Source: a virus
Lineage: Duplodnaviria > Heunggongvirae > Uroviricota > Caudoviricetes
DNA length: 64,000 nucleotides
Reading direction: 5' to 3' (one strand)
Virus record (IMG/VR): IMGVR_UViG_2684623171_000005
Positions 60,001 to 64,000 of the stretch are shown here, one piece after another. Numbering within the stretch: position 1 is the first letter of the stretch; each line of letters starts with the position of its first letter. The position numbers are program-made.

Positions 60001-63000
60001 ATGCAGATATAAAAATGGAAAAGTGGCGTGGTGAAAACACCAGGCCGTAGCAGAAGGCTATTCTGGAGAGTTAATTTTTCATTTCGGGCGTCGGATAAAC
60101 AGCCAGATAAACGTAACCACAACTGCTGAGGGTATCGGCTTTGCAGGTCAGCCCTTTTGCATACAGCGTGACGGTATGCTGATGGCGGGGATTCAGTTCA
60201 CCGCTGGTGAGCATGAGTTCCAGTTGTTTCATCAGCAGCGGAAAGGCCTGGTCCGGGTGGTACGCATCTGCATCGCTGAACAGGCCTCTGATACCGGCGC
60301 GGTCGGCAAGGTAATGCAACCGGTTACCCTCCTGCACCAGACGTGCCCCGAAACAGGGCGTCACGGTGCAGGGCAGCCCCCACCAGGGGCGGTCGTGATT
60401 GTCGTCGGGAAGTGTTGTCCCGGGGAGTGTGTCTGACACGATAAAATCCTTACAGAAAATCGGCTAAGAATGGTCCGGTAGTGGCGATAATTCTGCTCAT
60501 CAGAATTCCCACTCAGTTCAGGGTGACGCTCATCAGCCGGACATACGGACCAAAACTGTCCTTACGGCGTTCAGCAAACACGGCCAGCACACCGGGAATA
60601 TCCTGCACTTCACGACCGGTATACGCTTCAGCACTGCCGTGCCAGCGGTATTTACCGGTACAGAACGGAAAAAGACGGGATGTCGGATGTTGTTGGTGAA
60701 TACGCATGGCTTCACCACGGGTGATAATTTTCATAATGGGATACCTCTGAAGACAGAAGATAAAAGTGAAAACAGGTGTGATGTGGTTGTGACGGGTTAA
60801 AGCAGACCATGTTCGGCAAAGGAGAAAACCTGGTTGCCACCGACTATCAGATGGTCCGGCACCCGGATATCCACCAGGCCCAGTGCCTGTACCAGACGTT
60901 CGGTGATAAGCCGGTCTGCCTTACTGGGTGTGACTTCACCGGACGGGTGATTGTGTGCCAGTACCACGGCAGCGGCATTGTGGTACAGGGCGCGTTTAAT
61001 CACTTCCCGGGGATGGACTTCCGTGCGGTTGATGGTGCCGGTGAAGAGGGTTTCACCGGCAATCAGCTGATTCTGGTTGTTCAGATACAGCACCCGGAAC
61101 TCTTCACGCTCCAGTCCCGCCATGTTCAGAATCAGCCATTCCCGTGCTGCACGGGTGGAGGTGAAGGCCACACCGGGTTCATGAAGATGGCGGTCCAGGG
61201 TTTTCAGGGCCCGTTGAATGAGGCTGCGCTCGCCGGGCGTCATTTCTCCGGGCAGAAAGGAAATCTGTTGCATTATTCCGGCCCCTTTCAGTCAATGATG
61301 CGCATAATGGCGCTGCCTTCCGGATGCTGCAGGGCGTAATCCCGCAACCGGTAATAATGGACCGTCATGGCATAATTCTCCGTACGACAGGCATGATGGC
61401 TGTACGTCATCAGACAGGCGGCAATACCGGCGGCTTCCGGGCTCATTTCAGCGCGGTTACCGTTCATGGCATTGAACAGTACCCATGTTTCGTCATCATC
61501 ATCATCCGGTTCGGGGGCCATAAATGCCCCGCCGTTGTTCAGGGTGTACAGATTCCAGATACCACCGCAGTAGTCTTCGCACAGACGGTCCATCCAGCCG
61601 AAGACACGGGGCTCCAGGGTGACCCACTGTGGAATGAGGCCAAAATGCTGCGGCCAGAAGCTGATGCGCTGTTCATCAGGGACGAGGCTGGCAACCAACT
61701 GAGGCGGATTATTCTCTGGTGTTGTAGCTGAATAAATTGTGGGGGTATTCTGAGAAACGGTTTTCATGAGATAACTCCTTAAATAACAAATAAATGTGTG
61801 TTTTTCGGGAACGAAAGCTGAATGATTCCCTCACTCAGGGAAACGGCATCAGCGCAGGCTCTCCAGCATCGTTTCTGCCATCACCCACAATGCGCGATTG
61901 AGCTTAATGTCGGTATCAATGCTGTGAATGGCCCGGGTATGGATACGTTTTCCTTTTGCACTGCGACCGGAAATCCCGCCTTTCAGCATATTCTCCTGGA
62001 TGGTCTGATATGCGCTCCACAGGTCCTTACCGTAATCCTCCCGGCGTCGCGGCGTCAGAATGTCGGCGGTGGTGACGGGCTGATGTTCGTCACCATAACG
62101 GTAAGTCAGTGCCGCCTGTGCCAGCGCCTGGCGTGCCGGTTGCGGCAGGACCAGCGACTGCATGGCATCACGCTTCTCCTCTATCCGGTCAAACACGCCC
62201 ACCACCTCGTAAGCCCCTTCGATAACTTTCTCCACTACATTTCCCCGGTGTGGAACACGCACTTCCCCCAGAGACTGGCCACAGACGCACCCGTTCTGGC
62301 AGACGAACCTGAAGTAACCCGGCAGCATCTGGTAGCTGGAGGTACCGTCATGAGAGTTGAGCAGAATAATTTCAGGGACATGTTCTCCGTTTATCTCTCC
62401 GGCCCGCCGCAGACGCAGCATGTGTTTTGTGTATCCCCGGCGGCCCGGGTCGCGCACACGGGTCTGGCAGGCGAAGAACGGCTGAAAGCCTTCCCGCTGC
62501 AGATTTTCCAGGACGGTAATGGTGGGAATGTACGCATACCGTTCACTGCGGGAGGTGTGCCGGTCTTCCCCAAAAATACTGGGTACATGGCGTATCAGTT
62601 CTTCATGTGTCAGCGGACGGTCACGGCGTATCTGGTTTGCAGCATAACCAAAACGACTGGCTAATCGCATACTTTGCTCCTTATCGGTGGTTAAGATTTA
62701 CTGGTGCAATAAATGAAAAAAGCCGCGTCTCCCGGAGAAGACGCGGCCTGACGGGTGAAATGAATAAGGTTTATTGTCTGAGAGGCCTTTCACTGGCGAG
62801 CCACGCATTAAGCGGCTTTCCGGTAACAATGGCTGGGGCTGTATTTACCTTTGATATTAATAATGTGCAGAGAAACGCATGGTTTACTCCTTAGATTTTA
62901 AGTTTGTCCTGGGCTACACCGACAGGTTTTCCGGATGTGTCGATGACTCCTACCGTCGGTACGCCATTTTTGATTTCGAAGAACGGTTTGTTGCTACCTG

Positions 63001-64000
63001 AGCACAGTTGATTGTCCCCGTATTCAATCATTTGTGCTTTCCCGGTTTTCAGGTTAACTACCGAGACAGTGTAGTCGTAGCACCAGGCACCACCACGTTC
63101 AAGCACGAAAACATAGCTGTTATCTTTATAGTTGAACTGATTCTTTGTCTGGCAATTCATACCGTCAATTTCGGTACAGGAAAACGCTTCTGTAGTATTA
63201 ACGTATTTGATGTTATTTGGCAGTTTTACTTGTTTCGCAGTAGCGAAGACAGAGAACAGAATAGTTACAGCAACGAGTAAAGTTTTGATAAAAGTTTTCA
63301 TGATAGACTCCTTAAATTAGTTAACCGCAGCTACGTAGTTTTTCACCAGATACGCGAATTCATGCACGCCAATTTCACCGAACCAAACCAGGTAGGCCGG
63401 GTCATCTAAACCAAAGTAACGGTAGCCAACAACTTCATGGGTTTTTGGGTTATAGAGTGTTACGATAAAGTCCCAGCCGCAGGTATTGGCTTTGCAACCG
63501 TCGCCCTGGAACCAGACTGTACCGTTAATGTTTACTGGCGTGATACCTCCACCAGGGCCATCCATATAGCCGCCTTTACCGAACATGCCGCTCAGTCCGA
63601 CCGGTTTTAATGCTTTGTCGATAGCGGCTTTGTAGGTAGCGTCACCTTCGTACAACTCGTACGTTGATGGACACGCTCCAGGTTGTTCAGCCCAGGCTTC
63701 CGGGTTACAACTAAGAGCTTGTTTTACGGTAGCCGCTTCTGCGTTAAAGTTAAAGCCCGTGAACAGAACCGCCAGAAATAACATAAGGGTATGTAAACGT
63801 TTCATTGTAAATATTCTTCCGTTGTAAATGGCGCTGGAAAATTTCTCATCAGTGAAACCTTCCGGAAGTTTCCCCCCCTTGTATGATGTATATCGCCAGT
63901 ATTTTATTTCATCCCGGCTGTAATTTTTATATTCCCCGGCACGTGCAATAACGCGGACCAGAGATATAAGGCTCATTAATAACTTTACAGGTAATTTCAT

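Follow-up and report, generated by a model that had tools for sequence, protein, structure and literature searches.

The right-hand end of the 64,000-nucleotide stretch of DNA analyzed here (the window), which comes from the IMG/VR virus record IMGVR_UViG_2684623171_000005 (Caudoviricetes), carries two adjacent minus-strand open reading frames (ORFs), here called ORF-A and ORF-B. An earlier note, made from the sequence alone, had described them as secreted, cysteine-containing proteins of unknown function at 62891-64000. We found both ORFs at these positions, each with a signal peptide recognizable by inspection and with four cysteines in the mature protein that are conserved across homologs; the glycine-rich segment that had been reported in the second ORF, GKGGYMDGPGGG, is likewise present, at 63545-63580. 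The lower GC content of this DNA was also borne out, amounting to 41-49% across the gene pair versus 55-58% in the adjacent module that codes for DUF932, antirestriction, RadC, DUF987, and CbeA proteins. The pair had been placed next to a cryptic island, but it in fact lies inside the island. The end of the window is 100% identical to many Escherichia coli O157 (O157:H7) chromosomes, and the counterpart region of strain Sakai is annotated as the "phage-like element SpLE2," in which both ECs_2799 and ECs_2800 are labeled "hypothetical protein." The pair is cargo of a CP4-44-type island (Sakai SpLE2), in which it occupies a variable slot directly upstream of the DUF932-antirestriction-RadC-YeeT-CbeA module. 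Of 5426 complete E. coli genomes, 2248 (~41%) contain it at a coverage of at least 80%, and it is always annotated as "hypothetical." The features discussed below are as follows.

62720..62749, minus strand: intrinsic terminator of the operon, with a T-run after a GC-rich stem of 13 bp (AGGCCGCGTCTTC / GAGACGCGGCTT).
62891..63301, minus strand: ORF-A, 136 amino acids (aa) (Sakai ECs_2800, WP_000846711).
63308..63313, minus strand: Shine-Dalgarno sequence AAGGAG for ORF-A, 6 nucleotides (nt) 5' of the ORF-A ATG.
63317..63805, minus strand: coding sequence favored here for ORF-B, 162 aa, equal to the C-terminal 162 residues of Sakai ECs_2799 / WP_000775497.
63317-64000, minus strand: open frame containing ORF-B, 227 aa as annotated.
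63479..63496, minus strand: codons of the C-K-A-N-T-C loop of ORF-B (residues 104-109), TGC AAA GCC AAT ACC TGC.
63545..63580, minus strand: Gly-rich segment GKGGYMDGPGGG of ORF-B (residues 76-87), partly conserved.
63806..64000, minus strand: 65-codon in-frame remnant, corresponding to approximately the first 63 codons of a separate gene for a 180-aa secreted protein.

Window coordinates equal those of L001 plus 50599, with the operon terminator at L001 12150..12121. Between the stop codon of ORF-B (63317-63319) and the start of ORF-A there is a spacer of 15 nt that, as read from the sequence, holds the Shine-Dalgarno sequence of ORF-A, a position that indicates cotranscription and separate translation of the two genes. 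The operon terminator is located just upstream of the leader of the DUF932 gene, and a second terminator, just past the end of the window, closes the preceding gene. Hence, the tight spacer and the flanking terminators delimit a discrete transcription unit, a two-gene operon in the order ORF-B, ORF-A that is closed by an intrinsic terminator. The terminator hairpin and DUF932 leader (window 62660-62760) are ~93% identical to L006:8720-8860 in a 141-nt local alignment; in this other E. coli island (P0014 type), both elements are kept and ORF-A is absent. The clean presence or absence of ORF-A between islands with different upstream cargo suggests that the slot is variable in a cassette-like manner.

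The 227-aa gene model of RefSeq and Sakai (WP_000775497, ECs_2799) starts exactly at the window end. Several observations bear on whether this is the true start. Divergent homologs of ORF-B (58-81% identity) all begin at MKRLH, which corresponds to window position 63805. The 65 codons upstream of this position match the N-terminal 63 residues of a 180-aa secreted protein (L006:7098-7640) with 48% identity (BLASTP E value of 2e-17); the gene for that protein sits upstream of the Ivy-like gene (see below) in other islands. Moreover, a comparison of the window with an allele of 93% identity gives 22 synonymous and 14 nonsynonymous differences in ORF-B, versus 0 and 6, respectively, in the extension (Fisher p = 0.007). 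The shared start, the homology of the remnant, and the substitution pattern together point to a functional product of 162 aa encoded by 63317-63805. The remnant was joined by a deletion to the Ivy-like gene and is probably just a 5' leader; as the deletion junction lies ~17 nt 5' of the ORF-B ATG, the native ribosome-binding region of that gene has been retained. We rejected a 227-aa product on the further ground that export from its first Met would be expected to turn the now internal signal peptide into a stop-transfer anchor, stranding the Cys-rich domain in the cytoplasm. The 227-aa model is therefore likely to be an annotation artifact.

Both genes bear the marks of selection for protein function. 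The ratio of nonsynonymous to synonymous substitution rates (dN/dS) at low divergence is 0.17 for ORF-B and 0.15 for ORF-A, and at high divergence it ranges from 0.12 to 0.19; such low values indicate that both ORFs are real and under purifying selection. Signal peptides, which we assessed by inspection only, are predicted at residues 1-22 of ORF-A (63236-63301; MKTFIKTLLVAVTILFSVFATA, followed by KQ) and at residues 1-24 of ORF-B (63734-63805; MKRLHTLMLFLAVLFTGFNFNAEA, followed by AT), the latter lying within the 227-aa frame. Both combine a positively charged n-region with a hydrophobic core and an AxA motif for cleavage; in ORF-B, these take the form of an MKR n-region, a 15-residue hydrophobic core, and an AEA motif with cleavage before the next Ala, leaving a mature protein of 138 aa. 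A reading of the two products as lipoproteins was dropped, as neither has a lipobox. The signal peptides, every Cys of the four in each mature protein, the Shine-Dalgarno sequences, and the terminator are all intact.

Direct searches with the window proteins were uninformative. Pfam and NCBIfam models returned only noise far below threshold (SH3b_T, DUF6520, JUQZ, and GuaB3), phmmer searches against PDB sequences recovered nothing significant, word-indexed searches retrieved only close Enterobacterales relatives with uninformative names, and a scan of genome contigs gave only two loci. When a profile of the ORF-B family was run against the PDB, the periplasmic lysozyme inhibitor Ivy appeared at an E value of 1 only. 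The relationship to Ivy emerged from profile-profile comparisons using hhalign: the ORF-B family profile aligned with a profile of 22 canonical PF08816 (Ivy) proteins over 89 columns (probability, 95.5%; E value, 1.5e-8), with the CKANTCG of ORF-B placed exactly on the CKPHDCG of Ivy and the flanking strands in register, and E. coli Ivy alone was matched with an E value of 4e-4. Independently, tblastn searches of plasmids recovered proteins from Klebsiella IncFIB/HI1B megaplasmids with 33% identity to ORF-B (E value, 8e-11), which are named "Ivy family c-type lysozyme inhibitor" by the annotation pipeline PGAP. The N-terminal domain of these proteins passes the Pfam Ivy model (23.9 bits against a gathering cutoff of 21) and matches the ORF-B profile with a probability of 99.2% (E value, 3e-19). 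A relative from Kosakonia passes the same cutoff at 25.2 bits, and the relatives that do so share 27-33% identity with ORF-B. In addition, 9 of the 12 members of the ORF-B family match PF08816 below threshold (best E value, 0.0077), with one other family being hit, in a single member. Finally, a fold search places ORF-B in the Ivy superfamily, with a predicted Ivy fold consisting of a central antiparallel sheet flanked by helices. Taken together, the fold search, profile-profile matches, bridging sequences, and subthreshold matches assign ORF-B to the Ivy superfamily; by these sequence and profile comparisons, it is a remote homolog of Ivy.

These results bear on the remaining parts of the earlier note. 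Its statement that the function is unknown holds to the extent that neither ORF is functionally annotated; it no longer holds for the family of ORF-B, which profiles and bridging sequences identify as Ivy. The note had weighed and dismissed a lysozyme inhibitor for lack of the expected motif, a dismissal that fails for ORF-B: its CKANTC is a variant with the Cys spacing and the Lys of CKPHDC, and sister alleles with CKAHAC restore the His of the Ivy loop. It had also named homology to a well-characterized periplasmic protein as what would overturn its description, and ORF-B shows such homology, to Ivy. The structure prediction that it had proposed as a check was run and returned an Ivy-like fold for ORF-B (predicted local distance difference test [pLDDT] score, 66.5) and seven beta-strands for ORF-A (pLDDT, 63).

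The bridging Kosakonia oryziphila protein (L013:1624-2097) has 157 aa and a CEQHNC loop and scores above the Pfam Ivy threshold. Its gene apparently lies outside a CP4-type island, with no island-module ORF evident nearby (the neighbors were not run through Pfam), and it may represent the chromosomal root of the bridging clade. Some database entries for proteins of the Ivy-like clade carry the name "DNA polymerase III subunit gamma/tau," an apparent propagated misannotation.

Within the close family of ORF-B, C104, K105, C109, and the Gly that follows are invariant, and both Cys and the Gly are kept in the 31%-identical Klebsiella domain. The rest of the loop varies across alleles: besides CKANTC in the window, there are CKANAC, CKSNAC, CKSDAC, and CKAHAC, yielding a pattern of C-K-[A/S]-[N/H/D]-[A/T]-C in which His is confined to the P0007, P0014, and P0015 alleles. 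The bridging clade has loops of the type CE(Q/R)(G/H)NC. According to the account of Abergel 2007 given in PMC4262234, the CKPHDC loop is essential for inhibition by Ivy and strictly conserved in 30 family members, with five others showing CExxDxC. On sequence grounds, CKANTC is predicted to be a disulfide-closed loop homologous to the inhibitory CKPHDC loop, and ORF-B is a third loop type that retains the ring size and Lys of Ivy. The Gly-rich segment also has its equivalent in Ivy. It aligns as FGKGGYMDGPGGGITPV with WVMKGGTY--IPAQTV, G76, G79, G83, and P84 being invariant, and corresponds to the Ivy loop "KGGTY..", located ahead of the central sheet's first strand, in an extended form.

Compared with canonical Ivy (E. 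coli YkfE and Pseudomonas aeruginosa Ivyp1; PF08816; PDB 1GPQ, 1XS0, and 1UUZ), ORF-B shares a Sec signal peptide, a mature size of ~135 aa, and, between two strands, a six-residue C-x4-C loop that has Lys as its second residue and Gly directly after it. It differs in showing only ~15-18% identity, in having an extra N-terminal Cys pair (C33 and C45), and in its genomic setting: Ivy is a core, Rcs-regulated chromosomal gene, whereas ORF-B is found on jumbo phages and integrative islands together with a partner gene. P. aeruginosa IvyP2, of the CExxDxC type, is like ORF-B a divergent version of the Ivy fold with a non-CKPHDC loop, whose specificity may differ from inhibition of hen lysozyme. 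However, it has five residues between the loop Cys, where ORF-B keeps four plus the Lys, and there is no evidence of its carriage by phages or of a PHROG 8968 partner. The closest detectable relatives outside the ORF-B clade are two-domain proteins of 312-322 aa from Klebsiella megaplasmids and Salmonella and E. coli islands (e.g., WP_228706714). They keep all four Cys of ORF-B and occupy the same slot upstream of DUF932, but unlike ORF-B they have a CE(Q/R)GNC loop.

ORF-A is a member of a jumbo-phage family, PHROG 8968, matching phrog_8968 with an E value of 3e-46 (157.6 bits; residues 1-132 on profile positions 1-134 of 135). An exhaustive HMMER search with ORF-A of 1.84 billion representative proteins yielded only 30 matches, among them full-length relatives with 24-33% identity and the same four-Cys pattern; relatives from E. 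coli, Salmonella, Citrobacter, and Serratia are named just "hypothetical" or "secreted protein." C42, C74, and C100 are invariant; in distant members, the Cys corresponding to C50 is shifted by three columns of the alignment. The structural model has seven beta-strands and no helix, and PHROG 8968 is a four-Cys, mainly beta-strand periplasmic family. Homologs with 31-37% identity and the shared Cys pattern were detected by tblastn in Seoulvirus jumbo phages (~240 kb) that infect Salmonella and Erwinia. There, they belong to a tandem array of genes for small signal-peptide proteins of 133 aa (phrog_9424), 163 aa (phrog_17072), 136 aa (phrog_8968), and 127 aa (phrog_5248), which continues with two more genes and then one for an SMC-like protein. 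Of these families, phrog_17072, phrog_8968, and phrog_5248 cross-match one another and have the four-Cys pattern in common; the 127-aa type aligns with ORF-A with a probability of 93% (E value, 3e-7; hhalign). PHROG 8968, 17072, and 5248 are without known function; membership thus names the family of ORF-A but explains nothing about it.

A Foldseek search of BFVD with ORF-A gave only weak matches to uncharacterized phage proteins. The lysozyme inhibitors PliC/MliC, PliG, and PliI, which are also small, secreted, beta-rich proteins of Gram-negative bacteria, share neither a family hidden Markov model (HMM) match nor a fold with ORF-A. The idea that ORF-A oligomerizes into a propeller is unsupported, and we make no fold-based claim on its function. 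In one further arrangement, a 33%-identical ORF-A homolog (P0203; 137 aa; L014:4192-5414) occupies the same slot upstream of DUF932 and has no Ivy-like gene beside it; the gene before it codes for a GYF_2-domain protein of 179 aa whose C-terminal half is hydrophobic.

The Ivy-like family itself is likewise found in jumbo phages. In the metagenomic contig L003 and in IMG/VR viral genomes of 221-225 kb, an Ivy-like gene replaces the 163-aa gene of the array, giving the order 128/130 aa, Ivy-like, ORF-A, 129-aa paralog, 158 aa, 202 aa, and SMC-like. The phage Ivy-like proteins are 59-75% identical to ORF-B, and the phage ORF-A is ~75% identical to that of the window; between L003 and the Erwinia jumbo phage Asesino, the SMC-like proteins share 71% identity. 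A tblastn search with ORF-B of a collection of phage records gave no match, and the phage link comes from the IMG/VR contigs and synteny. The P0014-type island supplies a further connection: the 360 nt of seemingly intergenic DNA 5' of its Ivy-like gene (L006:7641-8000) prove to be a frameshifted copy of the phage 130-aa gene (phrog_9424), with residues 77-130 being 81% identical (tblastn E value, 3e-31). This remnant of a phage gene in an island shows that island and phage share a multigene segment, and because the decayed copy is the one in the island, transfer from phage to island is the favored, though inferred, direction.

The Ivy-like gene is also present on contigs of 223-227 kb assembled from Salmonella and Shigella isolate sequencing runs (P0020 cluster), which resemble complete jumbo-phage genomes that either accompanied the isolates or contaminated them. 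Just upstream in the jumbo-phage array, there are genes for small secreted proteins of the YfjT family (PF27224; L003:6598-7551 and L034:3106-3567). Neither ORF-A nor ORF-B has a Pfam HMM match to this family, whose genes are neighbors in the phage array and not homologs. As this family is named after a gene of the K-12 element CP4-57, other small secreted cargo of CP4-type islands may also stem from jumbo phages.

The Ivy-like and ORF-A families recur together in more than one arrangement. The Ivy-like gene precedes ORF-A in the window, L003, and L034. The reverse order, with an ORF-A-like gene followed by an Ivy-like fusion, is seen in L012 and L016-L021, which come from Salmonella diarizonae and many islands of E. 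coli and other Enterobacteriaceae; in this lineage, both partners are only ~30% identical to the window proteins, and the Ivy-like domain is joined via a Pro/Ala-rich linker to a C-terminal domain with four Cys. The sole PHROG match of this C-terminal domain is phrog_5248 (E value, 3.2e-4). Through this paralog only, and with moderate evidence, the fused domain probably belongs to the ORF-A superfamily. On the whole, we regard a functional coupling of the two proteins as likely, although not obligate.

On the basis of these observations, we lean, by a modest degree, toward the view that ORF-B is a phage-derived, Ivy-like periplasmic inhibitor of a lysozyme-type peptidoglycan hydrolase that has ORF-A as its partner protein. 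Mature ORF-B would be exported by the Sec pathway and acquire its disulfides in the periplasm, where it would bind a peptidoglycan glycosidase of the lysozyme type, i.e., a muramidase or lytic transglycosylase; its protruding CKANTC loop would plug the active-site cleft as CKPHDC does in Ivy, with ORF-A presumably acting on the same target or complex. Since the subfamily lives in lytic-type jumbo phages, we would favor as the target a phage or bacterial muramidase that enters or leaks into the periplasm rather than an animal lysozyme, and we speculate that the role could be one of exclusion or lysis control reminiscent of T4 Spackle. Once secreted into the periplasm, Spackle (gp61.3) inhibits gp5, the tail lysozyme of the phage, with proposed roles in superinfection exclusion and in neutralizing stray gp5 (PMC7650644, PMC7677548). 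It offers a functional model, being a small phage protein whose signal peptide is cleaved off and whose periplasmic target is a lysozyme, but it has no sequence or fold similarity to ORF-B and is a helical, allosteric inhibitor, in contrast to the cleft-plugging Ivy type. Ivyp1 and Ivyp2 have both been described to inhibit MltB (PMC10139938). In the jumbo phage contig L003, a protein with an SLT domain (PF01464; 15385-16083) is encoded ~7 kb downstream of the pair and is a candidate cognate target.

Several points weigh against this view. The window version of ORF-B has no PF08816 match at E values of up to 10 and no NF007443 match, falling below all Pfam and NCBIfam thresholds for Ivy; its loop has Asn where Ivy has His, the exact CKPHDC being absent; and its structural model, built from a 12-sequence alignment, reaches the above pLDDT of 66.5 with the loop below 50. 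As for the proposed target, no muramidase gene adjoins the pair in the island, IvyP2, with its different loop, shows no inhibition of hen lysozyme in vitro (PMC5526577), and E. coli Ivy inhibits the lytic transglycosylases MltA and MltB weakly (PMC10139938). Neither ORF has a match in PADLOC-DB at E values of up to 0.1, and a literature search by accession and locus tag found no paper on these genes and no biochemistry for the clade. The pairing, too, has its exceptions: the Ivy-like gene occurs alone in P0014-type islands and Klebsiella plasmids, and the ORF-A homolog occurs alone in P0203-type islands. The match of the fused C-terminal domain to the phrog_5248 paralogs is statistically modest (hhalign E value of 1e-3 and probability of 21%, with all four Cys matched), and its comparison with the ORF-A profile is not significant. 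Both families, furthermore, reside in the generally variable slot upstream of DUF932, where leader and terminator are kept whatever the cargo, and their adjacency could partly reflect this shared slot.

Other interpretations of the pair have to be set against this background. Were the target an animal c-type lysozyme, ORF-B would be an accessory second Ivy that makes gut and pathogenic E. coli more tolerant of lysozyme, and ORF-A would be unrelated cargo. Canonical Ivy does inhibit c-type lysozymes (PMC2267010, PMC3458809); among the sister alleles, the most abundant one (P0014 type) presents the His of its CKAHAC loop at the canonical position; and E. coli isolates from humans and animals frequently carry the pair. 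We nevertheless consider this unlikely: E. coli already possesses the core ivy gene, the window allele is without the His, lytic-type jumbo phages carrying the gene would derive no obvious benefit from resistance to animal lysozyme, and the repeated association with the ORF-A family would be left unexplained. We also give little credence to the possibility that the Ivy fold was retained without enzyme inhibition, in a periplasmic binding or chaperone-like protein or a ligand of ORF-A that would serve the phage in some other task at the envelope, for instance, in masking a receptor or in signaling the time of lysis. In the K-12 annotation, Ivy is indeed listed as a "periplasmic chaperone" in addition to an inhibitor, lysozyme is not inhibited by IvyP2 in vitro (PMC5526577), loop residues besides the Cys and Lys vary (N, H, or D at position 4), and the neighbors in the phage array are other small secreted proteins without an assigned role, including the YfjT-family members. 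Against this stands the invariance of C-x4-C, the Lys, and the next Gly in proteins that otherwise diverge freely, which argues that the loop is the functional site, as in Ivy.

A different division of labor, which we judge improbable, would make the operon an inhibitor/anti-inhibitor pair: ORF-B would inhibit a peptidoglycan hydrolase, and ORF-A, by binding to ORF-B, would lift or adjust this inhibition, comparable to the action of IltA and LiiA on MltF in P. aeruginosa. That periplasmic precedent for the control of a lytic transglycosylase (PMC10746161), the conserved adjacency and probable domain fusion of the two families, and the gain that such a switch would offer to phage lysis timing all fit this scheme. 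Yet it is not obvious why an inhibitor should be covalently fused to its own anti-inhibitor, either gene can also be found alone, and neither IltA nor LiiA has sequence similarity to the proteins, making the analogy conceptual only. The possibility that both genes are functionless hitchhikers, i.e., decaying fragments of the phage array kept in the island by linkage, would account for the scars of the locus, namely, the truncated 180-aa gene fused in frame, the frameshifted 130-aa remnant in sister islands, and the insertion sequence (IS) elements and pseudogenes nearby. It is very hard to reconcile with dN/dS values of about 0.15-0.18 for both genes next to a remnant without coding constraint, with the intactness of their signal peptides, Cys, Shine-Dalgarno sequences, and terminator, and with the presence of the pair in 41% of complete E. 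coli genomes. A pesticin-type immunity protein, which a nearby TonB-receptor pseudogene had brought to mind, found nothing in its support and was set aside.

The cbtA toxin gene of the island (window ~59609-59982; L001:9010-9383) is annotated as frameshifted, and the antitoxin gene cbeA (60071-60439) is intact. Strain PV15-279 lacks IS629, a YjcZ-like gene, and most of the patatin genes that Sakai holds between yoeE and ECs_2799 (stretches compared, L025:39492-46058 versus L001:13537-16068); yoeE, a gene for a TonB-dependent receptor, is annotated as a truncated pseudogene in PV15-279. The island is eroding differently among O157 strains.

We attach a moderate interest to the locus, mainly because its Ivy subfamily is borne by phages, has a partner or fused domain that recurs, and is present in ~41% of complete E. 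coli genomes. In terms of annotation, the 227-aa gene model should be corrected to a 162-aa protein, and the recognition of a hidden Ivy subfamily that current family models miss provides a testable identity for "hypothetical" genes in thousands of E. coli genomes. For PHROG 8968, 5248, and 17072, adjacency to and probable fusion with an Ivy-like domain constitute the first functional lead. The locus also records the transfer of gene segments between jumbo phages and CP4-type islands. The known range of the Ivy fold would come to include jumbo phages and integrative islands besides core chromosomal genes, and its carriage by phages bears on what Ivy proteins serve, whether against animal lysozyme or against bacterial and phage glycosidases. 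More tentatively, and as a suggestion that we ourselves regard as doubtful, the Ivy-like and PHROG 8968 proteins might constitute an unrecognized two-component, sometimes single-chain, periplasmic anti-muramidase module of jumbo phages that was captured by CP4-type islands. If so, the phages would use it for superinfection exclusion or for control of their own virion or lysis muramidase, and ~40% of E. coli strains would be protected by it against phage tail lysozymes or the muramidase toxins of other bacteria.

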